Shown piece by piece: positions 1 through 59,431 of a DNA stretch of 64,000 nucleotides. The number at the start of each line of letters is the position of its first letter. Position 1 is the stretch's first letter. The position numbers and the translations under genes are program-made. Where the stretch lies: assembly GCA_964598765.1 (NCBI GenBank), contig CAZRCZ010000001.1, forward strand, positions 342,327 through 406,326, read 5' to 3'. Source of the stretch: an uncultured Candidatus Sumerlaeota bacterium (GTDB taxonomy: Bacteria > Sumerlaeota > Sumerlaeia > MVZB01 > JAJFLK01). The notes under the pieces are model-generated. The model was not told where the DNA came from, made no database searches, and saw nothing but the letters and a program-made list of their open reading frames with translations.

Positions 1-3000
1 GGGATGCCCGTTCAGGGCGTTCGTCATGGTCAAGTTTCCCTAACCGAGGGCGTTGCCCTCGGCTACCATGAACCAGACCTTCGGCCTGTCGGATTGAAAC
101 GGGATTTCGATGCGAGGTCGAATTCTGAGACAGAAACGCGATGATCTGATCGAGCGTGCGGAGCTTGCCCATTTGGTCGGGCTGAATCGCGGGAGCGTCG
201 GGAAGTTTTTCCTGAACGGCGGAAAGGATCTCGACCCGCTTGATGGAGTCAATGCCGAGGTCGGATTCCAAATCCATGGAGAGGTTCAGCGTTTCGACCG
301 GATAACCGGTTTTTTCGCCGACGATTTCCAAGAGAAGCGTGGCGAAATCCGTTGAGGGAATTGAATCGGACGTTGTGCCATAGCGCTCTTCGGCTGTGGG
401 CTTGACAACTTCCAACATTGAGTCACGGGCGTCTTGTGCATGAATTGAAGGATTTGTTCCCGGAGCGATCGCAGACGGGACGCCTGCGCCATTTGTGTTG
501 ATAGCGGGCTTCATTCCCAACGCCTGCTCATAGAGTCCCTGCTGGCGGGTCATCAGTTCTTGCAAGGCGCGAAGAGAAGACTCTTGTCCTTCGAGAAATC
601 TGCGATGAATTTGCGTGGTTTGCTCTTGGAGCCTTTGAACCGCGACAAGATTTTCCTGAGCGGTCCTGAGGGCTTCGAGAAGGATTGGATTGGCGGTGGA
701 GTCGGAAAAGGATGGAAGGGGAGACGTTGAAACGGAAGGCGAAGCAGGCGCGGCGGGAAAGGTTTTCGGAGGAGGCGCGGGAGTATGGCGCTTGGGCGCT
801 TCCTGCGGCGAGAATTCGATTTTCGCGGGTTGGGGCGACATCGTGGTTTGGATTTCCTCCCTTGATTCGACAATGGCCGGAGCGCCGTTGCCGTTCTTCT
901 CGGCGGATGAAATTTTCTTTGGCGAAGCGGCGCGATACTGCGCTCCGCAAATTGAAACGGTCATGCGTGAATGTTTTTTGGGTTGAGCGTCGGATTGGGA
1001 CGATTCCGGTTCCCAGAGCCGGAGGTCAACCGGATGCCCTAGAGCGGCCAGTTGTGCCAGCGCGCGAGCGAAATCGGCGATGCCGTCGCCGCGACCCGAA
1101 CTCGCGTCCGCGGCAATGGCGTGATATTCCCGCTCGCCGAGAATTGCCTTGACCAATCCGGTCAGTTTCGCGCCCGGACCCACTTCGACGAACGTTCGCG
1201 CTCCATCTTCATACATTCGCTCGATTTCCGAACGGAAATTGACGGGATTGGCGAGTTGCGTCCCGAGTAGATCCCGCGCTTGATCGGCGTCATCCGGGTA
1301 TGTCTCATTTGTGGTGTTGGAATAAACCGGAATTTTTCCGGGTGAAATCTCGGCTTCGCGCAGGGCTTCGCGGAAGGGCGCTTGCGCCGAGGCGACCAGT
1401 GCGCTGTGAAACGCCGCCCCAACGGGTAGCGTCGCGCAAGTCAGTTTTCGCTTGCGGAAAATTTCAGCCGCTCGCTCGACCTTCGGCGTCGGACCGGATA
1501 AAACAATCTGCCTCGGAGCATTGAGATTGGCGACCGTCAATCCAAGCCGCTCCTCCTCGATCACCCGTACCGCCTCTTCAAGCGACGCTTGAACGGCGAT
1601 CATCGAACCCTTGTTGTCCGAAGCCTTGGCCATCAACTCGCCGCGAACCTTGGCCAGATGCAAGAGGGTCTTGGCGTCAATGCGACCGCCGGTAAATAGC
1701 GCCATCAATTCTCCGAAGCTGTGTCCCGCCGCCATGGCCGGATGCGCGCCGAACATCGTCAGAAGACAAACCATCCCCATGCTGATCGCGCCGATGGCGG
1801 GCTGGGCGACATGCGTGGCGCGGAGCGCAAGCTCGTTAAGTTTCTTGGCTTCCTCGCTGAACGTGGCGTGGGGTAAAATGAAATCGCTCAATTGGCAGGC
1901 CAAATCGGCGACGTCGCCGTAAGCGAGATCGGCTTGCGTGAGCGCCTCCTGCATTTTAGGGAAAAGACAAATCAAATCGCGAGCCATGCCGACGTATTGC
2001 GAGCCTTGGCCGGGGAAAAGAAACGCCAGCTTGCCCGGTTTGCGCGAGCGTCCGAAATAAGCTCCCTCGGGAAGCGACCACGAAACTTTTTCCTTCTCGC
2101 GCACCAACCGATCAAGCGCGCCCCCAAAAAGTTTTTTGAAATCCGCCTTGTCTTTTTCCAAGACCACGACAAGGCGATAAGGATGAAGACTCGAAAATTC
2201 GCGGCGCGACGCGGCGGCCATTCGGCAGGCCGAATCCCACGAATCCATCGCCGACCATCGGGCGATTTCAGTTTTCAAATCGTCCAGTGATTCGGCGGAC
2301 AGCGCGGCAATTTGAACCCGCCCATCCCAATCGGCCCCGCTTTTTTCGGAGCGAAATTCCTCCAACACCGCGTGGAAATTGCTTCCCCCGAATCCGAACG
2401 CGCTGACCGCGGCTCTGCGCGGATGCCCCTTGCGCGCGAGCCACGGCCGCTTTTCCGTGCTCACGTAAAAAGGAGTTTCCTTGTCCACCAGCGCCGGAGC
2501 GGGTTTGGAAACCTTGATCGTCGGCGGAAGAATCTTGTGATGCAACGCAAGAGCGATCTTGATGAGTCCCGCAACGCCGGCCGCCGCCTTGGTGTGGCCG
2601 ATTTGCGATTTGACCGAGCCGAGCGCGCACCAAACGCCCGATTCCCTCGCGGAGCGGTAAACTTTTTTCAGCGCGGAGACCTCGGCGGCGTCTCCCGCTT
2701 TGGTTCCCGTTCCGTGCGCCTCGACCAATTCAACCGTCGCGGGAGAAACTCCGGACAGACGATACGCCTGCTCCAAGGCGCGGACCTGCCCTTCCGCGCT
2801 CGGAGCGTAAATTGCCTTGCCCCGTCCGTCGGACGAAGTGCCGATCCCCTTGATGACGGCGTAAATTTTGTCGCCGTCGCGCTCGGCGTCCTTCAAACGT
2901 TTCAAGACCACCATTCCGATTCCTTCGCCGAGCATCGTTCCGTCGGCGTCGGCGTCGAACGGACGGATGTCGCCGGTCGGCGAAAGCGCGGGGGTCTTGC

Positions 3001-3766
3001 TGAAACACATGAACATGAAAACGTCGTTGAACGTGTCCGCGCCGCCGGTGACGACCATGTCGGATCGCCCCGATGCGAGTTCGAGCGTGGCCAGATGCGC
3101 GGCGCTGATCGAACTGGCGCACGCGGCGTCCACGACGCAATTCGTCCCGCCGAGATCGAGACGATTGGCAATCCGCCCCGCGACGACGTTGCCGAGCAAA
3201 CCGGGGAACGAACCTTCCTGCCATACGACATATTGATCGCCGATGCTCTTGACGATCTCGTCTGCGGGCTTGCCTTTAATTCCGTGGTCCTCGAGCGCGC
3301 GGCGCCAGATCGGATGGCCGAGCCGTCCGCCGAGAGCGATGGAAAGCTGAAGCGTTCCGGTGACGCCGAGGATCACGCCGACGCGCTCGCGGTTGAATTG
3401 GCGGTCCGCGCCGTATCCCGCGTCGGCCAGTGCGCCCTGCGCGACGATCAAACTCAAAATTTGCGAGGAATCGGTAGCCTCAAGCGTGTGGGGAGAAATG
3501 CCGAATTCGGTTGGATCGAAATCCACCGGCGAAAGAAATCCGCCGCGACGGCAATAGGTGTGGTCCGGTTTTTTGGGATCGGCGTCATAGTAATCGTCGG
3601 CGTTCCAATGCGAAGGAGGAACGTCGGAGACCGCATCCACGCCGCGCTTGATGTTGGACCAATACCCGCCAAGGCTCTGCGCCTTGGGAAAAAGGCAACT
3701 CATCCCGACGATGGCGATGGGAGTCGGACGGATTGTTTCTTCGGAGCTAATGGAGGTCTCCCTCAA
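1..3766 (-). CDS. pfaA: PfaA-like polyunsaturated-fatty-acid/polyketide synthase, N-terminal KS-AT-ACP portion (3' end lies beyond window start)
   Basis: Minus-strand frame is open from the window edge to ~3766 (absent from ORF track because it runs off the edge). Translation gives PIAIVGMSCLFP...YCRRGGFLSPVDFDPTEFGISP...DSSQILSLIVA (as at the PfaA N-terminus), KS motifs DAACASS (~3110-3130) and HGTGT, acyltransferase motif GHSFGEL (1707-1727), and ACP motif LGIDSIKRVEILS (~240-280). Start uncertain: TTG 3766 or ATG 3703. Confidence 0.8.
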   Translation of the reverse strand, partial: MRETSISSEETIRPTPIAIVGMSCLFPKAQSLGGYWSNIKRGVDAVSDVPPSHWNADDYYDADPKKPDHTYCRRGGFLSPVDFDPTEFGISPHTLEATDSSQILSLIVAQGALADAGYGADRQFNRERVGVILGVTGTLQLSIALGGRLGHPIWRRALEDHGIKGKPADEIVKSIGDQYVVWQEGSFPGLLGNVVAGRIANRLDLGGTNCVVDAACASSISAAHLATLELASGRSDMVVTGGADTFNDVFMFMCFSKTPALSPTGDIRPFDADADGTMLGEGIGMVVLKRLKDAERDGDKIYAVIKGIGTSSDGRGKAIYAPSAEGQVRALEQAYRLSGVSPATVELVEAHGTGTKAGDAAEVSALKKVYRSARESGVWCALGSVKSQIGHTKAAAGVAGLIKIALALHHKILPPTIKVSKPAPALVDKETPFYVSTEKRPWLARKGHPRRAAVSAFGFGGSNFHAVLEEFRSEKSGADWDGRVQIAALSAESLDDLKTEIARWSAMDSWDSACRMAAASRREFSSLHPYRLVVVLEKDKADFKKLFGGALDRLVREKEKVSWSLPEGAYFGRSRKPGKLAFLFPGQGSQYVGMARDLICLFPKMQEALTQADLAYGDVADLACQLSDFILPHATFSEEAKKLNELALRATHVAQPAIGAISMGMVCLLTMFGAHPAMAAGHSFGELMALFTGGRIDAKTLLHLAKVRGELMAKASDNKGSMIAVQASLEEAVRVIEEERLGLTVANLNAPRQIVLSGPTPKVERAAEIFRKRKLTCATLPVGAAFHSALVASAQAPFREALREAEISPGKIPVYSNTTNETYPDDADQARDLLGTQLANPVNFRSEIERMYEDGARTFVEVGPGAKLTGLVKAILGEREYHAIAADASSGRGDGIADFARALAQLAALGHPVDLRLWEPESSQSDAQPKKHSRMTVSICGAQYRAASPKKISSAEKNGNGAPAIVESREEIQTTMSPQPAKIEFSPQEAPKRHTPAPPPKTFPAAPASPSVSTSPLPSFSDSTANPILLEALRTAQENLVAVQRLQEQTTQIHRRFLEGQESSLRALQELMTRQQGLYEQALGMKPAINTNGAGVPSAIAPGTNPSIHAQDARDSMLEVVKPTAEERYGTTSDSIPSTDFATLLLEIVGEKTGYPVETLNLSMDLESDLGIDSIKRVEILSAVQEKLPDAPAIQPDQMGKLRTLDQIIAFLSQNSTSHRNPVSIRQAEGLVHGSRGQRPRLGKLDHDERPERAS

Positions 3767-3946
3767 TGACCGCGTCGCTCGATGAACCTTCGGATCGCGC
3801 CCATTCTGCAAAATAACCCCCCTCAAATCAATCCTTCATTTCATTCACTCTGGAATTTACATCCGCCGCTGATCGGCGTATCTTGAAAAAGGGATTCGGA
3901 CCGGAATGAAAAGGAATCCGGTCAACGGTCCCATGCTCCCGCTCCC

Positions 3947-6415
3947 GTGAATATCCAAATGGAACCCCTGACGCCCCCCGCATCTCCCGCGCCTCCAACC
4001 ACCGGTCTTGTCGGTCTGCCGGTCATCCCGCAGAAGGACCTCGTGGTCTTTCCCAACAGCGTCATGCCCCTTTTCATCATGCGGCACAAGGATTTGGCTT
4101 CGCTCGAAGCGGGATTGGCGATCAACAAGACGGTCTTTCTGGTCGCGCAACGTTCCCCCGCCGAGGATCATCCCGGTCCCAAGGACCTCTATCGCGTCGG
4201 CACGGCGGCGGACGTCATTCAAGTTTTGCGCCTGCCGGACGGCTCGGCCAAGGTGTTGGTCGAGGGAAATTGGGTCGGGCGCATCGAAACATTCTCCAAG
4301 GATTACGAGTATTTGCGCGGCGAGATTCGGCGGCTCGACTTTTTCGTCGAGGATTCCAAGGAACTTCAGGCGTTGAAACGGGGATTGCTCGGTTTGTTCG
4401 AGCAATACGCCCAGCTCTCCGACAAATTGCCCGAGGACCTTGCCCTCTCGATCAAAGCTCTCGAAGACCCGCTTCAACTCGCCAACGCGATCGCGAACTA
4501 TTGCCGTTTCCGAACCGAGGACAAGCAGAGGGTCCTTGAAGCGCAGGACGTCGCGGAGAAGCTTCAGCTTCTATCCCAACTTCTCGCCGCCGACAACGAA
4601 CTTCTAAAAATCGAAAACAACATTTTGTCGCAGGTCAAAAACAAAATTGGAAAAAGCCAGAAGGAGTATTTCCTCAACGAGCAACTCAAGGTGATCGAGA
4701 AGGAACTGGGGCTTGCCAACGAGGAAGACATCGAGCTGGACGAGCTACAGGACAAAATCAAGAAGGCGCGCATGGGGGAAGCGGGCAAGGAAAAGGCGTA
4801 TCGGGAATTGAACCGTCTGTCGAAAATGGCTCCGCTCAGCCCCGAAGCGACGGTCTGCCGGACTTATATCGAATGGCTGACCGAACTGCCGTGGGGCAAA
4901 TTCACGAAGGATCAAATTGACCTCAAGCGGGCGCAGGAAATTCTGGACGAGGACCACTTCGGATTGGAAAAACCGAAGGAGCGGATCATCGAATATCTGG
5001 CCGTGCATCGGCTCGTCGAAAAAATGCGGGGTCCGATTCTCTGCTTCGTTGGTCCGCCGGGCGTCGGGAAAACTTCGCTGGCCCGATCCATCGCGCGGTC
5101 GCTCCGCAGAAAATTCGTCCGCATTTCTCTGGGGGGCATCCGCGACGAAGCCGAAATCCGCGGACATCGGCGAACCTACATCGGTTCCCTTCCCGGCAAA
5201 ATCATGCAGTGGATGAAGAAGGCCGGCTCGATGAATCCGGTTTTTCTTTTGGACGAAGTGGACAAGATGAGCGCCGATTTTCGCGGCGATCCCGCTTCGG
5301 CTCTGCTTGAGGTTCTCGATCCCGAACAGAACAAAGCCTTCAACGATCATTACATCGAAGTTGACTTCGATCTGTCGCACGTCATGTTCATCACGACGGC
5401 CAACACCACGGCGGGTATTCCGTTTCCGTTGCTCGACCGCATGGAGATCATTCACGTTCCCGGCTACACCGAGGACGAAAAACGGATGATCGCGCTCCAA
5501 CACCTGATCGGCAAACAAACCAAGGCGCACGGGCTTTCCCGTCGTCAAATTGCGTTCCAGCCGGAGGCGATTGACACGATCATTCGCTCTTACACGCATG
5601 AAGCGGGCGTGCGGAATCTGGAGCGCGAGATCGCCGCGATTTGCCGAAAAGCCGCGCGCGACGTCGTCAACAATCCGGCGATTCACCAAATCACCGTTAC
5701 GCCCCAACTGGCGAAGGATTATCTGGGACCGATTCGATTCCAAGACATGGAATTACACGCCGTTCAGGAAATCGGCGTCGCCACCGGATTGGCTTGGACC
5801 GAAGTCGGCGGAGAAATTCTTCCCGTCGAAACGACGCTCATGGCGGGCAAGGGAGTCTTGCTCCTGACCGGAAAGTTGGGCGAGGTCATGCAGGAATCGG
5901 CCAAGGCGGCGCTCTCCTACATTCGCGCGCACTCCGCCGAGTTTGGCGTGGACAAGGACTTTTACAAGAAGCTCGACATTCACGTTCACGTCCCCGAAGG
6001 GGCGATTCCCAAAGACGGCCCTTCGGCGGGAATCACGATGGCGGTTTCGATGCTCTCCGCGTTGACGCGCCGTCCCGTTCGCCGGGACGTCGCCATGACG
6101 GGCGAAATTACCCTTCGCGGCCGGGTTCTTAAAATCGGCGGATTGAAGGAGAAATTGGTCGCCGCGCATCGCGCCCATCTGGAAACCGTGATCATCCCCG
6201 CCGACAACGAGCCCGAACTGGCGGAAATCGGCAAGGCAACACGCGAGGCGTTTCGGTTTGTTCCGGTCAAGACGATTGACGAGGTGATCGCCGTCGCCTT
6301 TGCGCCGCAGGAAGCGAAAAAGCAGCCGGAGGAAAAACCCGCGCTTCCCGAAATTCCGATGCTCAAACCGATTCGCATTCGCGGACGATCGCGCCGCATC
6401 TCCGCCCGGCTTTGA
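3947..6415 (+). CDS. lon: ATP-dependent Lon protease
   Basis: 822-aa ORF with Lon N-domain (LPVIPQKDLVVFPNSVMPLFI), Walker A VGPPGVGKTSLARSIARSL, and C-terminal protease domain (PKDGPSAGITMAVSMLSAL). ORF-track start 3947 is GTG; ATG at 3959 is an alternative. Confidence 0.93.
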   Translation: MNIQMEPLTPPASPAPPTTGLVGLPVIPQKDLVVFPNSVMPLFIMRHKDLASLEAGLAINKTVFLVAQRSPAEDHPGPKDLYRVGTAADVIQVLRLPDGSAKVLVEGNWVGRIETFSKDYEYLRGEIRRLDFFVEDSKELQALKRGLLGLFEQYAQLSDKLPEDLALSIKALEDPLQLANAIANYCRFRTEDKQRVLEAQDVAEKLQLLSQLLAADNELLKIENNILSQVKNKIGKSQKEYFLNEQLKVIEKELGLANEEDIELDELQDKIKKARMGEAGKEKAYRELNRLSKMAPLSPEATVCRTYIEWLTELPWGKFTKDQIDLKRAQEILDEDHFGLEKPKERIIEYLAVHRLVEKMRGPILCFVGPPGVGKTSLARSIARSLRRKFVRISLGGIRDEAEIRGHRRTYIGSLPGKIMQWMKKAGSMNPVFLLDEVDKMSADFRGDPASALLEVLDPEQNKAFNDHYIEVDFDLSHVMFITTANTTAGIPFPLLDRMEIIHVPGYTEDEKRMIALQHLIGKQTKAHGLSRRQIAFQPEAIDTIIRSYTHEAGVRNLEREIAAICRKAARDVVNNPAIHQITVTPQLAKDYLGPIRFQDMELHAVQEIGVATGLAWTEVGGEILPVETTLMAGKGVLLLTGKLGEVMQESAKAALSYIRAHSAEFGVDKDFYKKLDIHVHVPEGAIPKDGPSAGITMAVSMLSALTRRPVRRDVAMTGEITLRGRVLKIGGLKEKLVAAHRAHLETVIIPADNEPELAEIGKATREAFRFVPVKTIDEVIAVAFAPQEAKKQPEEKPALPEIPMLKPIRIRGRSRRISARL

Positions 6416-8907
6416 TGAAATCTCTCATCGCCCGTGAACGCGGACTTCCGCTGTTTTGCTTGGGATCGGCGTTGATTTTGGTGTATGGGCGATTTTTCAT
6501 CGGCTTCGCTCCCGCCGGACGCGACATCGTTCTTCAATATCTCCCATATCAGCAATTGGTCCGGCAGGCGATTTGGCGCGGCCAATGGCCGCTTTGGAAT
6601 CCGGCGACGTTTTGCGGGCGTCCGCTCATGGCCGACATTCAGGTCGGCGTTCTCTATCCTCCGAATTGGCTCCACTGGGTTCTTCCGCTCCCCGTTTCGT
6701 TTGCGATTCTTTTTCTCGCGCACACGGCTTGGTCGCTTTGGGGTTGCTTTCGGTTGGGGAAGACTTGGAATTTCAGTTCTCCGGCTTCTTGCCTCACGGC
6801 GGTTCTTTACACTTTCTGTGGATTTCTCTCGGTCAAACTTCAGACCGGAATCATTTTGTTTCACTACGCGGCGTCGTGGCTTCCGTGGTCCGTGCTCGCC
6901 TTGACGGCGTTGTATCGCGCTCCGTCGCTACGGAGCGCGATTGTTCTGGGGCTCGCTCTTGCCATGTCGTTGTTGGCCGGCGCGCCGCAGATCGCGTTTT
7001 ATTCGTGGCTTCTGGTTGGGGGATTGGCGGTGGGATTGACGTTGGGAGGGAAAAGGGTGGAAGGCGAGGAGCAAAAGGCGATAATCGGAGCGAAAGGAAA
7101 ATTTCTCTGTGGCGTCGCGGGGGCGTTTGGCTTGGCGGTTGCGTTGACGCTGATCCAAACCTATCAGACCTATCAAATGACGAGCGTTTCATTTGATCGG
7201 GGATTGAACGTCGGGATATCGAAACGCTGGGAGACGATGACGGAAGGCTCTTTGCGTCCTGATTTGATGTCCTTGATCCTCGATCCCGATTGGTTCGGTC
7301 CGGGAAATGACGAGATGCAATACGCCGGACCGGAAACGGGCTTCTCCGAGGCGTGCGCTTATCTCCCTTGGCTCGCGTGGGGACTCTTGCTTCCGCTGGG
7401 AGAGTTGATGTGGCGTTCTCTTTCCACTCGGGCGCGCCGAATATTTATTTGTTCGCTCCTCCTTGCAATTTTTTCAGTTTTGATGGCGATGGGACATTAT
7501 TCGCCGATTTTCCGTTTCTTCTTCGATCATGTTCCCGGATTCGATCTTTTCCGCGTTCCCGCGCGATGGATGTTCGGATTCAACGTCGCCGTCTCCGTCG
7601 CCTCCGGAGCGGTTTTCGACGAACTTCTCCGCGCGCGCCCTTTGACGGAAAAATCAAAGTGGACCCTTTTAATTGTGGTTGGTTTGTCTCTTGCCGGCCT
7701 TGCGGCTGTCCGCCTTGGTGTCCGGCAATCGAATTCAGCGCGCGGCGTTGAGACCTTTGCTCCGATTTTCAAACTCTCCATTCCCATCCTTGTAGCAATA
7801 TTCTCGGTGTGGTTATTCGCTTTTTTCCCTGTCCACGTAGGTCGGGCTTGTAGCCAGGCGAATGGTCGCCTTGAAAGGCCGACGTACAATCTTCTCCAAT
7901 TTCTTATTCCGCTATTGGCGACATTGGACCTCGCGCTTGTCGCATGGCCGAATCAAGCCGCCGTCCGCGCCGACAAGTTTTATTCGACCTTCTATTCTCA
8001 AACCCCTCTGGTGAAAAAGTTGAAGGAGATGTCAGCCGGAGGCAGAGTTCTCTGGACCGACGGACTCCTCGACTGGCATCTGGATCAAAACACGCCCGAA
8101 GTCGTCACCAATACCCTCATCATGCAAGGGATGACCGACGCGCGCGGATACGATCCGGTCAACGCGTGGTGGATCGGGACGTGGTTCAATCGTCTCGCGG
8201 GCCTGCCGCCGGAAAATAATCCGAGAGGCTATATGCGCGTCCCGAAAATCGCGCTACCCCCGTGGCTGACGTTGATGGGAGTCGAAACGATTCTGAGCTA
8301 TGAAGACTTGTCATCCCTGCCTGAACTTCAACTTGCGGACCGCGTTGATTTTCCCGAAGGACCGTTGGGGATTTGGACAAACAAAAATTATCGCGGCCTT
8401 GCCTTTGCGGTTCCCTCCGATTCCTCGGAAACAAACGTGGAACTTGATGATCGCGCGAAGGCTCAATCCCTCTCCCAACGCGCCGCTCTTTCGAATCCGA
8501 CCGATCCTCTCAAAGCCGTAGTCTTCGATTCTCTCAATTTTCATCCTTCATCCTTCATCCCTCATCCTTTCGGCGTCCGCGCCGTTGAGGAGGGTCCGAA
8601 TCGTTTTGCCTATCAAACCGATTTCCCCGACGCCGCCCCGTTGCTTTTCGCGCAAAGCGCGTATCCCGGCTGGAGCGTCAAGGTCAACGGCGCTTACGCA
8701 CCGCTTTCCGTCGTGTGCGGCACGTTTTTGGCGGTCGCGGTCCCCGCCGGAAAAAGTCTTGTGGAGTTCGAATATTATCCGCCGTCGGGATTTGAATGGG
8801 CCGAACTGACGAGCCTTGCGACGGCAATCGTCATGATCTTTTGCTTGATCCGCGATTGGCGAAAGGGGAAAACAGACGCTCCGATCAAACCGCAAACTCA
8901 ACCATGA
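6415..8907 (+). CDS. YfhO-family polytopic membrane protein (GT-C-like)
   Basis: ~830-aa ORF, multiple hydrophobic segments, N-terminal region QYLPYQQ...GQWPLWNPATFCGRPLMADIQVGVLYPPNWL resembles YfhO family. ATG at 6415 overlaps the lon stop (TGA 6413-6415); ORF-track start 6412 is TTG. Confidence 0.6.
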   Translation: MKSLIARERGLPLFCLGSALILVYGRFFIGFAPAGRDIVLQYLPYQQLVRQAIWRGQWPLWNPATFCGRPLMADIQVGVLYPPNWLHWVLPLPVSFAILFLAHTAWSLWGCFRLGKTWNFSSPASCLTAVLYTFCGFLSVKLQTGIILFHYAASWLPWSVLALTALYRAPSLRSAIVLGLALAMSLLAGAPQIAFYSWLLVGGLAVGLTLGGKRVEGEEQKAIIGAKGKFLCGVAGAFGLAVALTLIQTYQTYQMTSVSFDRGLNVGISKRWETMTEGSLRPDLMSLILDPDWFGPGNDEMQYAGPETGFSEACAYLPWLAWGLLLPLGELMWRSLSTRARRIFICSLLLAIFSVLMAMGHYSPIFRFFFDHVPGFDLFRVPARWMFGFNVAVSVASGAVFDELLRARPLTEKSKWTLLIVVGLSLAGLAAVRLGVRQSNSARGVETFAPIFKLSIPILVAIFSVWLFAFFPVHVGRACSQANGRLERPTYNLLQFLIPLLATLDLALVAWPNQAAVRADKFYSTFYSQTPLVKKLKEMSAGGRVLWTDGLLDWHLDQNTPEVVTNTLIMQGMTDARGYDPVNAWWIGTWFNRLAGLPPENNPRGYMRVPKIALPPWLTLMGVETILSYEDLSSLPELQLADRVDFPEGPLGIWTNKNYRGLAFAVPSDSSETNVELDDRAKAQSLSQRAALSNPTDPLKAVVFDSLNFHPSSFIPHPFGVRAVEEGPNRFAYQTDFPDAAPLLFAQSAYPGWSVKVNGAYAPLSVVCGTFLAVAVPAGKSLVEFEYYPPSGFEWAELTSLATAIVMIFCLIRDWRKGKTDAPIKPQTQP

Positions 8908-9212: not shown

Positions 9213-9258
9213 GAATTGGCCTGCGAAAGACGCGAAGGATGCGAAAATTGAATTTGAA

Positions 9259-15805: not shown

Positions 15806-16081
15806 ATGAACATTTCAAAGACCAGCCGTAACATCATCTTCGGGGCATTGGGGATGGTGGGATTTTGGGCTGGGTTAGTATGTATAGGTTTGTTCTTCGG
15901 TCCACGAATTTTGGACAGCCTGAGCCGGAACGATCCCTCCGCGGAACGACAACAGACGAGGGCGAATTTGGAGTTGAGCCGAAGATTGCTTCAATCGTCG
16001 AAGCCACCGGAAGATGAAATAGATCAGCTTCTGGACGCGAATGGAAATTTGGGGAACGAACATGGAACTGAGCGCAGATAA
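15806..16081 (+). CDS. Hypothetical small membrane protein
   Basis: 91-aa ORF with one hydrophobic helix (IIFGALGMVGFWAGLVCIGLFF); no recognisable family. Confidence 0.3.
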   Translation: MNISKTSRNIIFGALGMVGFWAGLVCIGLFFGPRILDSLSRNDPSAERQQTRANLELSRRLLQSSKPPEDEIDQLLDANGNLGNEHGTERR

Positions 16082-16781
16082 AGTTATCGCGATCACGGGG
16101 GCCTCGAGGGGAATCGGCCGGGCGACGGCGTTGGCGCTCGCGGAGGAAGGAACGCGGCTTGCGATCATGGCGCGCTCGACGGAAGCCTTGAGCGAGCTCG
16201 ATGTTGAATTACGAAAGCGCGGAGCGGTGGATGTTTTTTATCATGCGACCGATTTGACCGAAGAGGGAAGTTGCGAAAAATGGATTCAGGCGATTTTGGA
16301 CCGTTGGGGAAGAATTGACGCGCTCATCAACAACGCGGGAATCGGAATCATGAAACCGGTTGAGCAACTCGCCGACGAAGACTGGGCGCGGGTAATCCGG
16401 ACCAACCTGACCGCGCCGTTTCGCCTGATCCGCTCGGTGATCGGTCCGATGCGCAAACAGGGGGGAGGGCACATCATCAACGTTTCCTCGATCGCCGGCG
16501 AAGTGGGATTCGCCGGAGGGGGAGCCTATTGCGCGAGCAAATTCGGATTGCAGGGACTGTCCGATTGTCTCATGCAGGAAGTCCGGCGCGACGGGATCAA
16601 GGTGACGATTCTCGGACCCGGATCGGTCAACACGAGGTTCGAGGGTAAAGGGGGCGAGGGAGCCTCATGGAAAATTCAACCCGAAGAAATTGCCCGGACC
16701 ATTGTTTATCTTCTGAAATCTCCGGATAATGTCATGGCGACGAAATTGCAAATCAGGCCGACATTGAAGGGGAAGAGTTGA
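16062..16781 (+). CDS. SDR-family short-chain dehydrogenase/reductase
   Basis: N-terminal TGASRGIGRA cofactor motif, NNAG, catalytic YCASK. Start at ATG 16062 (GGGGA 8 nt upstream). Confidence 0.85.
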   Translation: MELSADKVIAITGASRGIGRATALALAEEGTRLAIMARSTEALSELDVELRKRGAVDVFYHATDLTEEGSCEKWIQAILDRWGRIDALINNAGIGIMKPVEQLADEDWARVIRTNLTAPFRLIRSVIGPMRKQGGGHIINVSSIAGEVGFAGGGAYCASKFGLQGLSDCLMQEVRRDGIKVTILGPGSVNTRFEGKGGEGASWKIQPEEIARTIVYLLKSPDNVMATKLQIRPTLKGKS

Positions 16782-16840
16782 AAGGATTTTGGATGAGCGG
16801 GAAGAAGGCGGAGTGAAATGAGATTAAAATTAAGATTAGG

Positions 16841-16888
16841 AGCAAGAGCAAGAGCAAGAGCAAGAGTAAGAGTAAGAGTAAGAGCAAG
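16841..16888 (+). repeat. Hexanucleotide tandem repeat (AGCAAG/AGTAAG) x8 in fmt leader
   Basis: agcaag x4, agtaag x3, agcaag x1 read directly; lies 64-111 nt upstream of fmt ATG. Confidence 0.9.
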
Positions 16889-16951
16889 AGAAGCGGAATC
16901 GGAATCTTAAGTTTCCAACCTCAAAACTCGGATCTAAAATTAAAGTTTAAG

Positions 16952-17911
16952 ATGAAAATTTGTTTCATGGGAACGCCCGACTTCGCGGTGCCGGCTTTGG
17001 ATCGGTTGCTGGCAAGCCGCCACGAGGTTTGTCTCGTCGTCACGCAACCGAGCAAACCGAAAGGGAGGGGACGTAAGATCGCCGATCCGCCGATCAAGAC
17101 TCTCGCCGGCGGGCGCGGGATTCCAGTCCTTCAACCCGTGAGTCTCAAGAAGGAACCGTTGGAGGACAAAATCAAGGAATCCGGCATTGACGCCATCGTC
17201 ATCGTGGCCTACGGAAAAATTTTGCCCGAATCGCTCTTGAACGCGCCGCGATTGGGATGTCTCAACATTCACGCTTCGCTCCTTCCGAAATATCGAGGAG
17301 CCGCGCCGATCCAGCGCGCCTTGATGGACGGACAAATGGAGACCGGCGTGACGATCATGAAGGTCGTTCCGCAATTGGACGCCGGACCCATCATCGCGCA
17401 AGAGCGGGTCGAAATTCACGACGACGACGACGCGCTTTCGCTCGCCAACGTGTTGAGCGTCGTCGGAGCCGATTTGCTTCTCCGCGTGTTGGACGACATC
17501 GAACGGGAAGGGGTCATTGAAGGGGAAGCGCAAGACGAAACCGAAGCGACTTATGCGGCGATGATTTCCAAAAGCGACGGGGAGATTCCGTGGAAAGCGA
17601 CTTCGCATGAGATCATGTTTCGTCTTCGAGCGCTCTCGCCATGGCCGGGACTATTCACCACGCTCGACGGCAAACGACTGCGCGTTCACCAAGCCGAGCC
17701 GATGTCCGAAGATGAAGCGGAGAAGATTGGAGCGGATGATGCCCTCGCGCCGGGATCAGTTTCGGGATTCTTGAAGGAATTCGGATTCGCCATCCGGACG
17801 GGAGACGGGCATTTGCTAATTCGCCAACTTCAACTCGAAGGAAAACAGGCAACCGAAGCCGATGCGTTTCTCCATGGGCATCCCTTGAAGATCGGGACGA
17901 AATTGGGTTAG
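16952..17911 (+). CDS. fmt: Methionyl-tRNA formyltransferase
   Basis: MKICFMGTPDFAVPAL..., HASLLPKYRGAAPIQRAL, C-terminal domain; typical length 319 aa. Confidence 0.93.
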   Translation: MKICFMGTPDFAVPALDRLLASRHEVCLVVTQPSKPKGRGRKIADPPIKTLAGGRGIPVLQPVSLKKEPLEDKIKESGIDAIVIVAYGKILPESLLNAPRLGCLNIHASLLPKYRGAAPIQRALMDGQMETGVTIMKVVPQLDAGPIIAQERVEIHDDDDALSLANVLSVVGADLLLRVLDDIEREGVIEGEAQDETEATYAAMISKSDGEIPWKATSHEIMFRLRALSPWPGLFTTLDGKRLRVHQAEPMSEDEAEKIGADDALAPGSVSGFLKEFGFAIRTGDGHLLIRQLQLEGKQATEADAFLHGHPLKIGTKLG

Positions 17912-23615: not shown

Positions 23616-23709
23616 AAACACAAAGACACAAAGAAGGCACAAAGAATGGTGAGGCCGTGTGTCTTCCTAATCCCTTGTATTCTTTGTGACTCCTTCGTGT
23701 CTTTGTGTA
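23616..23709. repeat. Imperfect palindrome of tandem CACAAAG heptamers (CACAAAG subfamily, copy 1)
   Basis: Arms aaacacaaagacacaaagaaggcacaaagaatg and cattctttgtgactccttcgtgtctttgtgt separated by ~30 nt; shares a 23-nt identical core with 57445-57571. Confidence 0.85.
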
Positions 23710-23715
23710 TAATCT

Positions 23716-30485: not shown

Positions 30486-30926
30486 CTAAGCCTTGGAATT
30501 CAAAATCTCGACAACCCTTACCGTAAAATTCAAATCTTCTCCCGCCATCGGATGGTTGGCGTCCAGAACGATCCGGTCCTTGCCGACGTGCGCGATGATG
30601 ACAGGCATGAACGCGCCGTTGAGCAGGCGGATTTGAAAGCGTTGCCCGACTTCGACCGGAAGCCCTTCGGGAATTTCATGCGGCTCGGCGGCGAGAATCC
30701 ACTCCTGCCGATGCGGACCGAACGCCTGATCGGAGGAAATCTTGAATTTCTTGGATTGCCCCTTCGCCATGCCGACGATGGCGTGTTCGAATGCCGGAAG
30801 AAATTTTCCCTGACCGAGCGTGAACTGCAACGGCTCACGCCCTTCGGTGCTGTCGAAGACCGCGCCGTCGTTCAGCGTCCCCATGTAGTGAATCTTGACG
30901 GTGTCGCCCTGTTTGACTTGCGCCAT
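30486..30926 (-). CDS. FKBP-type peptidyl-prolyl cis-trans isomerase
   Basis: MAQVKQGDTVKIHYMGTLNDGAVFDSTEGREPLQFTLGQGKFLPAFEHAIVGM is a typical FKBP domain. ATG at 30926. Confidence 0.8.
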   Translation of the reverse strand: MAQVKQGDTVKIHYMGTLNDGAVFDSTEGREPLQFTLGQGKFLPAFEHAIVGMAKGQSKKFKISSDQAFGPHRQEWILAAEPHEIPEGLPVEVGQRFQIRLLNGAFMPVIIAHVGKDRIVLDANHPMAGEDLNFTVRVVEILNSKA

Positions 30927-31080: not shown

Positions 31081-31180
31081 TCTTCCCATCATTGCTCCTA
31101 CTCTTACTCATTCTCCTTCTCCTGAGAAAAGCATAAACCGCAAGGTGTTGAGAATGAGGAGGAGTAGGAGTATGAGAATG
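31081..31180 (+). repeat. Purine-rich imperfect inverted repeat in leader of M28 peptidase gene
   Basis: ctcctactcttactcattctcc ... gagaatgaggaggagtaggag(tatgagaatgag); the purine-rich arm ends 9 nt before the ATG at 31189. Confidence 0.7.
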
Positions 31181-31188
31181 AGAACGAT

Positions 31189-32901
31189 ATGGAACCAACC
31201 AACACCGACAAGCGATTTTCATTACGCGACCTTCTCGCTTTCGTGCCGATTCTCGTCTTGGCGCTCTGCGCGGCGTTCGCGTTAATGCGGATCACGCCCC
31301 CCAAACCGAAACCCGCCGACGCGCCCGCCTCGGAATTTTCCGCTGAGCGTGCGCTGATCCATCTGCACCAGATCGCCAAAGCGCCGCATCCCTCCGGCTC
31401 CGAGGAACACCGCCGCGTCCGGGAATACGTCATCGGCGAATTAAAAAAATTGGGTCTGGAGCCGGAAATCCAACAATCGGTTTCGGACGAGAAATCAGGC
31501 GGCCATTCCGCCCCCGGCATGACGTTCACCAACATCATGGCGCGATGGAAGGGAACGGACAATTCCCGCGCTCTCTTGATCGCCTGTCACTACGACAGCG
31601 TGGCGATGGGACCCGGCGCGAGCGACGACGGAGCGGGCGTCGTGGCGGTTCTGGAAACGATCCGCGCCTTAAAATCCGGCGCGCCGCCCAAGAACGATCT
31701 GATCTTTCTTTTCACCGACGGCGAGGAGGTCTGCCTCTGCGGAGCGCGGGCGTTCGCGGAGAATCATCCTTGGGCGAAGGACGTCGGATTGGTCGTGAAT
31801 TTCGAGGCGCGTGGGACCGCCGGACCTTCCATCATGTTCGAGACCAGCGCCGAGAACGGTTGGCTGATCTCCCAATACGCCCGCTCCGCCGTTCATCCCT
31901 CCGCCAGTTCGCTCAGCTACGAAGTCTATAAGCGAATGCCGAACGACACCGATCTGACGGTGTTCAAGAAACGGGGATTCGCGGGATTGAATTTCGCGTT
32001 CATCAAGAACGTCAAATTTTATCACACGGCCAACGACACGGTCGAAAATCTGGACAAGCGGAGCCTCCAGCACCACGGCGAGAACGCGCTGGCCATGGCG
32101 CGATGTTTCGGCAATCTCGATCTGCGGGAAATCAAAAAAACGAACGACGTCTATTTCGACGTCCTCGGCGCGTTTGTCATTCGATATTCTGAACATTGGG
32201 CGATTCCGTTGGCGATATTCGCGGTTCTGTTTTATCTGGTGATTACAATGACGGCGATAAAACTTGGCGAGTTTTCGTGGCGGCTGGGATTATTACGATT
32301 GGGTCTGTCGCTGGCCACATTTATTCTTTGGCCGCTCTTGCTCCATCTCCTCTCACTGGTGGGTCATATCAACTCCATTTCCAAGAAGGACCCATCTGGA
32401 TTTGCTTTCACGACCAATCCCTACGCGCTCTTGGGATTTGTTTTGGCGGCGCTTGCTCCCTTTTTCGGGTACTATTTGGCATGGAAGGGGGGTTCGGTCG
32501 TGGAGAAGACGATTGCCGGAGTATTCTGGTGGGTTATTCTGACCCTCCTGACGGTCTTTTTCCTTCCCGGAGCCAGCTATCTCTTCACTTGGCCGCTCAT
32601 CTTTGCCGCGCTCGGAATAGGATTTGTCCTCCAATCCCAGCGAATAGGAGGAAGTCCGATTGTGAGATCGTTTGCTTTGCTTCCTTTCAGTATTCCCGCC
32701 ATCATCCTTTGGACCCCGACCATCTATCTTCTGTTTTTGGCAATGACGCTCAAACTAACAGGCGTGATCGTCTTATTCGTGATGTTGAATCTTGAACTTT
32801 TTGCCCCTCACTCCGCGCCTTTATCGCCGCGACTACGTTCCGTTGCAATAATCGCAACCGTGGTGATCGGCATCGGCCTTGTAACCTATATTCTCCGGTG
32901 A
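31189..32901 (+). CDS. M28-family metallopeptidase with C-terminal polytopic membrane domain
   Basis: Peptidase M28 motifs (HYDSV, SDDGAGV, DGEE, metal ligands) in N-terminal half; C-terminal half with multiple TM helices. Confidence 0.75.
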   Translation: MEPTNTDKRFSLRDLLAFVPILVLALCAAFALMRITPPKPKPADAPASEFSAERALIHLHQIAKAPHPSGSEEHRRVREYVIGELKKLGLEPEIQQSVSDEKSGGHSAPGMTFTNIMARWKGTDNSRALLIACHYDSVAMGPGASDDGAGVVAVLETIRALKSGAPPKNDLIFLFTDGEEVCLCGARAFAENHPWAKDVGLVVNFEARGTAGPSIMFETSAENGWLISQYARSAVHPSASSLSYEVYKRMPNDTDLTVFKKRGFAGLNFAFIKNVKFYHTANDTVENLDKRSLQHHGENALAMARCFGNLDLREIKKTNDVYFDVLGAFVIRYSEHWAIPLAIFAVLFYLVITMTAIKLGEFSWRLGLLRLGLSLATFILWPLLLHLLSLVGHINSISKKDPSGFAFTTNPYALLGFVLAALAPFFGYYLAWKGGSVVEKTIAGVFWWVILTLLTVFFLPGASYLFTWPLIFAALGIGFVLQSQRIGGSPIVRSFALLPFSIPAIILWTPTIYLLFLAMTLKLTGVIVLFVMLNLELFAPHSAPLSPRLRSVAIIATVVIGIGLVTYILR

Positions 32902-46882: not shown

Positions 46883-46957
46883 TTCACCACAGAGACACAG
46901 AGAGGGTGAAAAAATGCGGACTCGCACTTTTCTACTTCTCTGTGTCTGCGTGGTGAA
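46883..46957. repeat. Imperfect palindrome of tandem CACAGAG heptamers (between convergent genes)
   Basis: Arms ttcaccacagagacacagagagg and cttctctgtgtctgcgtggtgaa; loop ~29 nt; sits between the mqn-like stop and the GT4 stop. Confidence 0.85.
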
Positions 46958-46958
46958 C

Positions 46959-49155: not shown

Positions 49156-52100
49156 TCACTTCAGCGTCGAGATGAACTCCACCAAATCGCGCAATTCGGA
49201 TTTGGCGAGATTTTCAGAAATGTCTTCGGGCATCGAGGAGAGATTGTGCTGGCGGGAGACGATTTGATCCTTGGGGAGCGTCATCTTCGTCACTCGCGGG
49301 CCTTTAGTGGCTTCCGACTCCCACTTTTCGTTCTTATCCTTCTCCTTCTCATCCTCCTTTTCGTCCTTTTTTGCTTCCGTCCCCTTCGGCGCATCCTCCT
49401 CCTCGACAAATTCCTCCCCTTCTTCTTGGACTGGAATCTCCAGTAGAATCTGGTTTCCTTCTTCTTCCAGAACCCGTCCGGCGTATTCCTTGCCGTCTTT
49501 CATCGTCAGCGTGACGTTCTCAAATCCCTCGGCGATTTGCGCGTTGGGATGAAGAATGGATTCGAGGATGTATTCGCGCCCCTTGCGTGTGCCGACGCTC
49601 GGTAGCTCCGGCCCGACTTCGCCTCCCACTTTGCTTTTAACCGTATGGCATTTCTGGCAGGTGACTTCAGTTTTCTCGAAGAAAATTTTCTCTCCCCGCT
49701 CGGCGTTGCCGCCGAAGAGCGACTCGCGGAATCCGCCGAGCGGATCATCCGTGGAAATCGCGGATTGATACCGCGCCAACTTCATTTTGATCTCATCGTT
49801 CGGATGCTTCTGGGCCGCTTCGAGCAGATCGAGTTGAATTTCGGCGGGGACTTTTTTCGCCGCCAGCGAATCGAGCCACGTCGAGAGCAGTTGATCGAAT
49901 TGCGCTCCCTCCAAATCGGCGAGCGTCGCCAGCGCCCCTTGCTTTTCGAGGATGCTTCCCCCGTTGAGCGCCGTCGCCAAGACGCTCGCCGCTCCGGCGG
50001 GATCGAGTTTGGCGAGTTGAGCGTTCCCCTCGTTGCGTAGCGCGTCGGCGGCGTCGGCGCGGGCGAGGTTCACCGCCTTGGCGAGGTTGGGGTCCTCGAA
50101 TTCGCCGAGCGCCCTCAGCGCCTCAACTCGCGCCTCGGTTGGCTTTTTCGCGTCGGAGAGCAACGCAAAGAGGGGCGCGCCCGCCTCAGCGACTTGATAC
50201 TGTCCGGCGAGTTGCGCGCAGGCCTGCAAAATTTTGTTCGGCGCGGAGCGGAGAAGTTCGGGCAGGATCGGCCTCAAGGCGCGAGCCGCGGTTTCGGGAT
50301 CGCGCTTGGGCAGAGGACGCCAGACGCCGATCACGCGGTCGCGCCCCGACGGAGACGCCCAATCTTTTAACTCGCCGAGCGCTTCGAGCCTCACGACCTC
50401 GGGCGGCTCCGAGCGCGACGCGAATTCGGCGATGGCTTTGGCGTTCTCCGCGCCGCCCAATCGGAAATTCGCGTTGAGAATCCTCAACATCACCGGCTTG
50501 CCGACCACGTCGGCGTCGGCCATTTTCAGAATGTTTTCGCTCTGGCCGATCATCCCCGCCAGTTCGGGTAGGGCGTCGGCAATCGGAACGTCGTTGATCG
50601 CATGAGCCGCCTCGCTGACGAGCGCCGGATCGCGGTCCTTGAGGAATCGCGCAATTTCCGGTTTTTGCATTCGACGCAAGGCGAGCAAAATTCCCATCCG
50701 CACCGCCGACGATTCGTCATCGGCGTGTTTCAGCAACGCCTCCGCGTCGCCAATCCCGACCAATCCCATCACTCCGGCATGGCGCAGATACGGATCGGCG
50801 TCGTTATTTTCGCGAAGCATTTCCGCCAGCGCGGAGATGTATCTGGTTTTAATTTCTTCCGATGGAGGCATCGCCGGAACGCCGGGATTGACGATCTTGC
50901 CAAGACTCATCGCCGTAAAAAAACGGACGCGAAGACTTGCATCTTTGAGTAGATCCAATAATTCCGTCAAATGTGACTCATTTGAATTTAATATTACCGA
51001 ATGTATGTCGCTCAAGACCTTGATTGCTTGGGCACGAATTTCGGCGTTTTCGTCTTTCAAGCACTCAACCAAGACGGCCTCTCCGCGATTGCGCGGATCA
51101 GACAAAAATTCTCCAAGTCCTTTGCCCAACAGTTCGCCTGCCGCTTTTTCCCCTTCTGGTCCTAACTTAAGATCGTTTCCGGAAATTAAAGTAGAGACGA
51201 CAAGAGAAAAAATGAATTGGAACTCTTTCTCTTTATCTTGGGGAGATTGGGCTACGGCTTCGGATTTCGGCTCGACCTTAGGTCCGAGTTTGCTCAGAAC
51301 TTCTCCGATTCCCCAAATTGCGTGGAGCCGTGCCCATGGGCTTCGAGAGCATTTCTCAGCCAATTGTAAAAGCGCCCGTGCTTGAGCATCCGGGTATTCT
51401 CCCGATGTCCAAGAATTTTTGAACTCCTCGGAGTAGGTTTGCGGACTTATGAATGCAATCGTGCCCAGCGTTCCAAATAGCATAAAATCCGAATCACGCC
51501 CAGTCTGGAGCCTTCTCAAATCCCTCCGTGCCAACTCATACTGCGCCTCGAACCGCACTCTTTGATCCTGGTGCGCGAGCAGTTCCCCCAACTCATAATC
51601 GCTGTAGCGATCCAGATTCCCCGCGAGGATTTCCTTTGCCTCCTTGACGAGCGGATCGTTTTTCACCGCGGGATCGAAGGCGTGATAGAGGCGTCCCTTG
51701 TGCGGCTGATCCCAACCTTCGGTCCAATCGGTCCAATAAATGCCCCCCTCAGCGCCGAAATCCACGTCGGTCACGAGGGACCCCTTGAGGAAATCCTCGC
51801 GGTCGGTCATCTCGAACGAGGCCCCCTTGGGTTGGACCTTGAAGGTGTGAATCAGGCTTATCCCCGCTCCGCCGCGAAAATCGCACAGAAAAAAATGATC
51901 CTTGTATCGTTCCGGCATTCCCGTGCCGGGATAAAACGCGAACCCCGCCGGTCCGGCGGCGACGTGCGCGACGGGAGGCACGATATACGCGGCCTGTCCC
52001 TTCCACGGGAGGTGCCAGATTTTTTCGCCGTTCCACGGACCGCGCTGGACCGGCTTTTCGATCCACTGGTAGCCGATCCGCCAGCCGCTGTCGCCCCCCT

Positions 52101-57584: not shown

Positions 57585-59229
57585 TCACCAGCTTCCCCGC
57601 GCGATCGGCATGTGCCGCCCATAGCCGAACGCCTTGCCGGTGACCTTCAGTCCGGTCGGCATTTGCTGGCGCTTGTATTCGTTGCGGTCAATCATTCGGA
57701 CCACCCGCTGGACAAGCTCCTTGTTGCCTCGGCGGGCAACGATCTCTTGGAGGCTGACACGTTGCTCCACGTAATCCGCGATGATCGGATCGAGGAGGTC
57801 GTAGGGGGGAAGCGAATCGGTATCGAGTTGGTTGGGACGCAATTCTGCCGACGGGGGTTTCTCGATACTGTTTTTCGGGATGCGCTCTTTCTCGCGGTTG
57901 ACCCAACGCGAGAGCGAATAAACCCGCGTCTTCAAGACGTCCGAGAGAACCGCCAGCCCACCGCTCATGTCGCCGTAGAGTGTGCAGTAGCCCGTTGCCA
58001 ATTCCGATTTGTTTCCTGTGGTCAGCACCAGCCAGCCAAATTTGTTGGAGATCGTCATGAGGAAATTGCCGCGGATCCGCGCCTGCAAATTTTCTTCGGC
58101 GAGTCCGAACGGCGCGCCCTTGAAAATTTCATTCAGCGATTTCAACGCCGACTCAAAGACGGATTGAATCGGCAAGAGATGAAATTCGATTCCCAAATTC
58201 TTCGCCAGTTGTTTCGCATCGGTGCGGCTGTGCTCCGAACTGAACTGCGACGGCATGGCGACGCCGCAGACGTTTTCCGGTCCCAAGGCGTCGGCGGCGA
58301 TCACCGCCGTCAGCGCCGAATCAATCCCGCCGGAAAGTCCGATCACGACCTTCTTGAAACCGCATTTCCCGACGTAATCGCGCACACCGAGCGTCAATGC
58401 CCTGTAAATTTCTTCGTTCGAGTCTATTTCCGCAAACGTCCCATGTCCGACCGAATTGGAATCTATCCCCACGACGCTCAGGTCTTCCTGAAAAGAGGGA
58501 GATTGATGAAGGACCTTGCCCTCTATGCCCCACGCCTCGCTCCGCCCGTCAAAAATCAGATTGTCGTTTCCGCCGACCAGATTGACGAACACTAGCGGAA
58601 TTTTGTAGCGGGTCGTCGCCAGCGAATACATTTCCGCGCGGATTTTCGGTTTGCCAAGACAATAGGGCGAAGCCGAAATGTTGATCATCAAATCCGGCTT
58701 TTGTTCGGCGAGCGTTTGCACCGGATCAACGGGGTAAATGCGATTGCGCCAATAGAGTCGGTCGTTCCAGAAATCCTCGCAGATCGTCAGCGCGATGTGA
58801 AGCCCGCGAAACTCGGCGATTTGAACCGATGGAGCCGGTTGAAAATGCCGCGCCTCGTCGAAAACGTCATAGGTCGGAAGAAGTGTTTTGAAATGACGCG
58901 ATACGATTTTTCCCCGATCCAACACGGCGGCGGCGTTGTAAAGTCCTTTTCCATCTCCTTCGGCTCGCCGCTCGACGTAACCGATGATTGCGCCCGGTTT
59001 GCCTTCTCCCCGCGTCGCCTCCGCCAATTCCTCCAGCGCGCGGCGATTGGCGTCAATGAACGAAGGATGCTCAAGCAAATCCTTGGGCGGATAACCGGTG
59101 AGCGTAAGTTCGGGAAACACGACAATTTCCGCGCCTTGCTTTCCCGCGCGATCCATCGCGTCGAGGATTTTCCGTTTGTTCTCCTGAACGGCTCCAACCG
59201 TGGTGTTGATTTGTGCCAACGCGATCCGC
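57585..59229 (-). CDS. nadE: Glutamine-dependent NAD+ synthetase
   Basis: N-terminal nitrilase-like domain (LRIALAQINTTVG, VVFPELTLTGY) and C-terminal NAD-synthetase domain (VVIGLSGGIDSALTAVIA). Start chosen at TTG 59229 (AAGGA upstream); the longer ORF-track form translates the hexamer repeat as KSKSKSKK. Confidence 0.85.
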
Positions 59230-59253
59230 AATTTTTCCTTGCTCCATGCCCTT

Positions 59254-59289
59254 TTCTTGCTCTTGCTCTTACTCTTGCATCTGCTCTTA
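59254..59289 (-). repeat. Hexanucleotide (AAGAGC-like) tandem repeat in nadE leader
   Basis: Plus-strand cttgct cttgct cttact cttgca tctgct cttaat; in nadE sense it reads attaagagcagatgcaagagtaagagcaagagcaag, 25-60 nt upstream of the proposed start. Confidence 0.85.
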
Positions 59290-59431
59290 ATCCAGAAGAA
59301 ATTCGCCGGGTTTGTTTCAAAAACGGCCGGAACGCGACAATGATGAGAAGACTCACGCGAGCGGGAAATTATTGACACCCCATGTAAATTGACCGCATGA
59401 TACGGCGCATTAGGCTGGCGAGGTTGCCCCC

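Follow-up and report, generated by a model that had tools for sequence, protein, structure and literature searches.

The window analysed here, a stretch of 64,000 nucleotides from an uncultured Candidatus Sumerlaeota bacterium, encodes a methionyl-tRNA formyltransferase (fmt, 16952-17911, + strand), recognized by its Pfam domains Formyl_trans_N and Formyl_trans_C and by the annotation of homologues. Between fmt and an upstream short-chain dehydrogenase gene (16041-16781, +) lies a core array of hexamers at 16840-16893 (+), which reads GAGCAA four times, GAGTAA three times, then GAGCAA and GAGAAG, and ends 58-63 nt before the fmt ATG. An earlier sequence-only reading had described eight units upstream of fmt at 16841-16888 (four AGCAAG, three AGTAAG and one AGCAAG), and re-reading the DNA gave the same units at the same position. 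It had also singled out a gattag/gattaag motif before both this array and a related one near nadE. These letters are present, but they do not form a separate motif. They are degenerate repeat units, read from the sequence as GATTAA AATTAA GATTAG at 16822-16839 (+) in front of the fmt core. GATTAA-type units are also frequent in arrays of this kind elsewhere. Tandem Repeats Finder reports the fmt array with a period of 6 and about 10 copies (score 81 for the rows with periods of 12 and 18), and the array is a tandem repeat in that its units run head to tail, are no longer than 9 nt and exceed chance expectation. A 12-nt inverted repeat, AAAATTAAGATT and AATCTTAAGTTT (92% complementary; 16826-16837 and 16903-16914), flanks the fmt array. 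It is AT-rich, possibly due to chance, and unused in the minimum-energy fold.

A second array precedes nadE (57585..59231, -), which encodes a glutamine-dependent NAD+ synthetase with a Pfam CN_hydrolase domain. The predicted TTG start of nadE at 59231 is supported because the CN_hydrolase domain begins at residue 2, because the gene caller's product (P0121) is the same protein of 548 amino acids, and because relatives begin with MRIALAQIN. On the minus strand, positions 59292-59251 read GATTAA GAGCAG ATGCAA GAGTAA GAGCAA GAGCAA GAAAAG. Decayed units (GGCATG GAGCAA GGAAAA) continue in the same 6-nt register as far as the TTG, and the whole occupies 59232..59292 (-). These decayed units carry Shine-Dalgarno-like GGAG/AGGA. 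With the TTG at 59231 as the start, the earlier placement of a related array about 25-60 nt upstream of nadE, in sense orientation to that gene, is approximately correct.

Beyond these two, a search for further arrays finds two more in the window and, as described below, very many in other genomes. Both additional arrays are located back to back in the 262-nt gap between two divergent genes, one for a SlyD-like FKBP-type peptidyl-prolyl isomerase (30486..30926, -) and the other for a membrane M28 peptidase (31189..32901, +). The FKBP-side array (31092-31121, -) reads GAGAAG GAGAAT GAGTAA GAGTAG GAGCAA and is 165 nt from the ATG of its gene at 30926. The M28-side array (31150-31185, +) reads GAGAAT GAGGAG GAGTAG GAGTAT GAGAAT GAGAAC, contains Shine-Dalgarno-like GAGGAGGAG/GGAG/GAG, and is only 3 nt from the ATG at 31189. 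Scanning the window for GAGNANGAGNANGAGNA, the (GAGNAN)3 pattern, with at most one mismatch yields 20 matches where 0.25 are expected. A relaxed (GAGNAN)4 scan of the 64 kb returns the four intergenic arrays and one coding stretch rich in Glu, Asp and Lys (49327-49368, -), compared with 0.5 in shuffled sequence. All four arrays keep G1, A2, G3 and A5; positions 4 and 6 vary, giving the consensus GAG-N-A-N. All four are intergenic, and in each the purine-rich strand is the sense strand of the nearest gene, although four of four corresponds to a p value of only about 0.06. The nadE and M28 arrays, two of the four, reach the start codon; the fmt and FKBP arrays do not.

The arrays can be compared with independent Logan assemblies of the runs SRR12313479 and SRR12313480, which contain the same organism and probably both sample one population. 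The nadE array is exact in a contig of SRR12313479 (L138), and the whole FKBP-M28 intergenic region recurs base for base in contigs of both runs (L140 and L141). Another contig (L139), which includes the dehydrogenase gene, stops within the fmt array and contains only its first five units, (GAGCAA)4 GAGTAA. Its other end lies in ordinary coding sequence, so we attribute the break to fragmentary assembly and not to polymorphism. Because the Logan contigs reproduce the arrays, these are not assembly artefacts; the arrays are real and far from random. No change in copy number was seen in the nadE array or the 31-kb pair between the window and the Logan contigs, which probably represent a single population. 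In the collections searched, exact-protein look-ups gave Logan contigs of the two runs and no other strain of this species, and a metagenome scan for relatives of Fmt gave one close relative.

For both Fmt and NadE, the closest named homologues belong to Candidatus Sumerlaeota (BRC1). The remaining genes of the window encode ordinary housekeeping proteins, without an obvious RNA-binding regulator; among the window proteins scanned there was no Hfq, CsrA, CSP or S1 gene, and likewise no gene for TRAP (mtrB). Searches of the window with Rfam at gathering thresholds, and for tRNA and tmRNA, gave no match. A large gene resembling type I polyketide or fatty-acid synthases (KS-AT-ACP; 5-3826, -) extends beyond the left edge of the window.

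The sequence-only reading had assigned the fmt array to the fmt leader, a label that may not hold. The sole sigma-70-like site in the fmt upstream region, the candidate promoter TTTCCA-17-TAAAAT (16912-16940, +; a consensus match only), sits 3' of the array, between it and the ATG, and ends 11 nt before the ATG. No Shine-Dalgarno sequence precedes the fmt ATG. A promoter-like site downstream of the array, together with the missing Shine-Dalgarno sequence, indicates that the array is possibly outside the mRNA, and it may lie upstream of the promoter of a near-leaderless message. The promoter scan found no convincing promoter for nadE. None of the arrays is positioned between predicted -35 and -10 hexamers.

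No GAGNAN array precedes fmt or nadE in the closest relatives available, which share 59-71% protein identity. In two of these (L001 and L137; 68% identity) fmt and the gene before it overlap, in three (L002-L004; 59%) the two genes abut, and in one (L136; 69%) unrelated sequence is found upstream of fmt. The nadE upstream regions of L142 (71%) and L143 (68%, with accB-nadE synteny kept) also have no array. The fmt and nadE upstream regions do not align with those of the nearest relatives past the start codon, and the relaxed scan applied to 67 kb of relatives' DNA identified no comparable intergenic array. Given that they are missing from the same positions in relatives, the arrays look evolutionarily young and lineage-specific.

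The only strong matches of the relaxed scan in relatives are in L142, inside a called Pro/Ser/Thr-rich ORF and on the other strand. In this contig (L142:61-1894), a recombinase-like gene and the Pro/Ser/Thr-rich ORF, of 192 amino acids, precede nadE, and the opposite strand of the ORF is a 220-nt purine-rich, hexamer-periodic tract with GAGTGG/GAGAAG/GAGTAA units. We do not consider this tract comparable to the arrays, since it lies within a called ORF beside a recombinase gene and on the opposite strand. In yet another relative (L121; 67%), (CCCCAAG)4 ends 10 nt before the fmt ATG, and an inverted (AGGCTTG)2.4 is found further upstream (2155-2171, 2230-2298). The position of (CCCCAAG)4 is equivalent, so different repeats occupy the fmt upstream region in related genomes.

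Beyond this lineage, we scanned for exact copies of GAGYAAGAGYAAGAGYAAGAG, which corresponds to 3.5 units of GAGYAA. At least 116 stretches were found in a species-representative genome collection, against an estimated expectation of about 2, and at least 120 in viral contigs. Arrays of the (GAGYAA)n type are therefore a very frequent feature, both of viral contigs and of many phyla of bacteria. The matches listed include Planctomycetota, Verrucomicrobiota, Acidobacteriota, Desulfobacterales, Pseudomonas and Bacteroidota, among others. Depending on the criterion, about one quarter to one third of the 122 arrays listed are in long open frames that encode (EQ)n or (SK)n. The others listed are non-coding and mix GAGCAA, GAGTAA, GATTAA and GATAAA, as do the arrays in the window. 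Of the listed arrays, those no more than 70 nt from a gene start are in sense orientation in 20 cases and antisense in 6, compared with 14 and 16 for those adjoining gene ends; both counts are based on crude ORF calls and are indicative only. A search of the literature for the repeat sequence itself gave nothing relevant.

Desulfobacterales bacterium HSG2 alone carries the repeat at 8 or more loci (including L008, L064, L079, L081, L106, L108 and L118), many of them long arrays in which GATAAA, GATTAA and GAGCAA are mixed and which reach 24-27 units; some are back-to-back inverted pairs that would form very long hairpins between genes. In Pseudomonas spp. (L035, L059 and L095), (AAGCAA/GAGCAA)n arrays share the 5' flank gcgcgcttag, which points to either a conserved gene end or a repeated element.

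In the window, the RNA of the fmt and nadE upstream regions has no predicted folding advantage over shuffled sequence (z = +0.30 and z = +1.55, respectively), and the arrays are predicted to be unpaired. Consecutive A-R-N triplets number 19 in the fmt array (16838-16894), 9 in the nadE array, 6 in the FKBP array and 5 in the M28 array; other A-R-N runs of 5 in the window are at chance level. The sense strand of the fmt array contains no start codon and its antisense strand five, and the corresponding counts for nadE are one and three. The sense strands of the M28 and FKBP arrays contain three and two ATG codons, so it is untrue that all four arrays are poor in start codons. The mean purine fraction of upstream regions in this genome is 0.52. 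Upstream regions are thus not generally purine-rich, and the arrays are not merely the extreme of a background trend.

The explanation we favour, to which we give about an even chance of being right, is that the arrays are GAG-N-A-N hexanucleotide microsatellites that were born by slippage and are tolerated, or mildly used, in 5' regions in sense orientation. They would arise and grow by replication slippage, of which blocks of identical units, such as four GAGCAA followed by three GAGTAA, are a signature. Their persistence in 5' regions would be limited to the orientation whose transcript does no harm or is of slight use. The sense tract is predicted to be purine-rich, unfoldable and poor in start codons, and its GAG/GGAG and (ARN)n elements could serve as a landing pad for ribosomes or for an Hfq-type protein. 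The opposite orientation would place TTG start codons, poly-Leu frames and anti-Shine-Dalgarno-like CUC/CUCC runs in the leader. Changes in copy number would then shift leader length, or the spacing from promoter to upstream sequence, gradually and without on/off switching. Against this explanation stand the unchanged copy number in the Logan contigs of what is probably one population, the p value of about 0.06 for orientation, the ATG codons in the M28 and FKBP sense strands, the ordinary purine content of upstream regions in general, and the conservation of G1, A2, G3 and A5 across four independent arrays, which hints at selection on the sequence that goes beyond tolerance.

If they are only tolerated microsatellites, the arrays would provide strain-typing markers and a warning for assembly and gene calling, as illustrated by the Logan contig that ends in the fmt array and by the spurious poly-Leu and (SK)n frames. 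If they are used as landing pads, they would represent a cheap, evolvable form of translation tuning in a little-studied phylum with few obvious Shine-Dalgarno sequences.

By analogy, the closest described counterpart is the TAACTGA heptamer, which forms direct repeats in marine Beggiatoaceae, some Cyanobacteria and Bacteroidetes (MacGregor 2015, PMC4679880). Both are short intergenic tandem direct repeats in forward orientation before unrelated, partly essential genes, and both are patchy across phyla with an unproven function. TAACTGA repeats are likewise abundant in some genomes and missing from close relatives (PMC4679880). They differ in that the unit here is a purine-rich GAGNAN hexamer in 5-10 copies, whereas TAACTGA mostly occurs in 2-6 copies. 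Contact with the start codon is another difference, as it is seen in only two of the four arrays here, a proportion known from 64 kb alone. As landing pads, the GAGNAN arrays would join the TAACTGA repeats as a second, independent example. Cyanobacterial STRR heptamer repeats and the VNTR loci used for MLVA typing are also intergenic tandem repeats, with units of 6-9 nt, and are strain- or lineage-specific like the arrays described here, but the unit sequence here is different. The arrays belong with intergenic simple sequence repeats near gene starts, a known type of element, and their function is unproven.

A second explanation, which we consider rather unlikely, is that the arrays are dedicated RNA cis-elements, namely 5' UTR platforms on which an oligomeric RNA-binding protein co-regulates the translation of unrelated genes. 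One candidate for this protein is Hfq, since (A-R-N)n is the motif bound by its distal face; another is a TRAP-like ring recognizing GAG triplets at 3-nt spacing. Distal-face sites for Hfq are exemplified by the 6ARN site of Pseudomonas amiE, bound with Hfq-Crc (PMC9890229), and Hfq with Crc represses translation via ARN clusters in Pseudomonas initiation regions (PMC9890229). Like such sites, the arrays are A-R-N runs, predicted to be single-stranded in fmt and nadE, at or just upstream of the ribosome-binding site, and two of them overlap the translation initiation region. In fmt the run is a perfect (ARN)19, and all four arrays contain at least the 4-6 triplets of known sites. The GAG-N-A-N pattern common to the four arrays lends a platform some support: the invariant A2, A5 and G3 coincide with A and R sites, and position 4, which varies most, coincides with an N site. 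A similar network has also been proposed for the TAACTGA repeats (PMC4679880). However, known Hfq sites have 4-6 triplets and no tandem hexamers. The R site of the M28 array is often T (in ATG units), which breaks the rule, and GAT units, frequent across phyla, break it as well. We therefore rejected the Hfq ARN rule as a constraint that holds across phyla, where only position 2 is clearly protected.

Sites for TRAP (MtrB) in Bacillus consist of 9-11 (G/U)AG triplets separated by 2-3 nt. The arrays resemble these in their GAG triplets at fixed spacing, with nine GAG and 3-nt spacers in the fmt array and five to six GAG in the others. Unlike TRAP, which regulates tryptophan genes, the arrays precede unrelated genes and are accompanied by no TRAP gene in the window, and near-identity of units, as seen in them, typifies slippage rather than binding sites under selection. 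TRAP is known only from Bacillota. Whichever protein is considered, an RNA platform is also disfavoured by the missing conservation of the arrays at the same genes in relatives, by the lack of a common pathway among the downstream genes, by the window encoding no RNA-binding protein candidate, and by the promoter-like site downstream of the fmt array, which may leave that array untranscribed.

A broader form of this idea is a post-transcriptional network with the GAGNAN arrays as its cis-elements, in which an oligomeric RNA-binding protein, Hfq-like or another reader of GAG triplets, would bind the repeats in 5' UTRs and so set the translation of many unrelated housekeeping genes. We regard this as quite improbable. 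If true, such a network would have arisen or spread more than once and would extend to Planctomycetota, Verrucomicrobiota, Acidobacteriota, Desulfobacterota and others, and would be a purine-rich counterpart of the network proposed for TAACTGA.

It is also unlikely, in our judgement, that the arrays act at the DNA level, as variable spacers or upstream elements 5' of promoters whose slippage leads to graded or phase-variable transcription. The fmt locus fits such a role, as TTTCCA-17-TAAAAT lies 3' of the array and close to an ATG without a Shine-Dalgarno sequence, the arrangement expected for a near-leaderless mRNA. The 165 nt between the FKBP array and its ATG leave room for a promoter, and long perfect runs of units are prone to slippage. 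Comparable variation is known from contingency loci of host-adapted bacteria such as the 7-bp repeats in the 5' region of Haemophilus influenzae hmw1/hmw2 and the TAAA tract of Neisseria nadA. These are likewise short tandem repeats in promoter or leader DNA, in which slipped-strand mispairing can alter copy number and thereby modulate expression. The arrays studied here, in contrast, belong to a free-living environmental bacterium and accompany housekeeping genes, not genes for surface antigens. They also lack the features of a phase-variable contingency locus, in that the 6-nt unit keeps the frame, all arrays are intergenic and none separates promoter hexamers. The nadE and M28 arrays lie directly at the start codon, and only if the mRNAs of these two genes were leaderless could they escape transcription. 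A 6-bp period loses helical phase, the strand-specific orientation is unexpected for a simple spacer, and the nadE array and the 31-kb pair have the same length in the Logan contigs, as noted above for what is probably one population.

A role as hairpin-forming repeat elements, with inverted pairs acting as REP-like elements, terminators or RNA stabilisers, appears very doubtful. The pair at 31 kb does form an inverted repeat: 21 nt of the 31150-31185 array are 90% complementary to 31095-31115 and, if present on one transcript, would fold with z = -3.3 to -3.5. HSG2 (L079 and L108) has inverted (TTGCTC)n(GAGCAA)n pairs as well, set back to back between co-directional or convergent genes, and the genome studied here is rich in hairpins of tandem 8-mers. 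Against this, the fmt and nadE arrays lack inverted counterparts and their predicted folding is poorer than that of shuffled sequence, the pair at 31 kb is between divergent gene starts and not at gene ends, and the GAGNAN units are unlike those of the CACA[A/G]AG family. The likeness between the hexamer and the units of this palindrome family, proposed in the sequence-only reading, is consequently weak: the 31-kb pair is an inverted repeat as the likeness would have it, but the two kinds of unit are different, and the arrays at fmt and nadE stand alone.

The hairpins of tandem 8-mers in the window are long and consist of ACACAAAG / CACAGAGG with the complements on the other arm (23617-23712, 46884-46958, 52966-53052 and 57448-57570). 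They are intergenic, located between convergent or co-directional genes and in one case just upstream of the start of an ApbE gene. A like element follows fmt in the relative with 69% identity (L136:1200-1300), which indicates that the 8-mer hairpins are a lineage-wide REP-like family.

We rejected the idea that the repeats are translated, either as a small Arg-rich leader peptide (16818-16910, MRLKLRLGARARARARVRVRVRAREAESES) or as an (SK)n N-terminal extension, and consider it highly improbable. The small ORF exists and has GGAG upstream, and the Ser-Lys frame is free of stops from 16817 into fmt and from a GTG at 59378 into nadE. Nevertheless, possible start codons are in different repeat frames among the four arrays, the M28 array contains in-frame TAG stops, the frame that would extend fmt has no canonical start codon, and downstream of the small ORF there is neither a terminator nor an antiterminator structure. 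The N-termini of homologues are contrary to an extension as well, given that gene callers and relatives start NadE at MRIALAQIN and that Fmt homologues align from residue 1. The open (Ser-Lys)n frame into fmt (16817-16951) and nadE (59232-59378, -) is judged a coincidence.

A replication origin with a DnaA-trio was rejected, as no DnaA box is near the arrays (two one-mismatch matches in the window, at 23704 and 61281, against 4.7 expected) and the presence of four arrays is a further argument against it.

Two other tandem repeats were observed in the window. One, (TGCGAAAGA)2.8 at 9221-9246, occupies a short gap between a convergent DUF202-like ORF and dsbD; its units resemble those of the 8-mer palindrome family, and it has no obvious inverted partner. 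The other is the heptamer repeat (TTCATCC)4.3 at 8540-8569, which is inside a membrane-protein ORF (6412-8907), where a 7-nt period in coding sequence is unusual.
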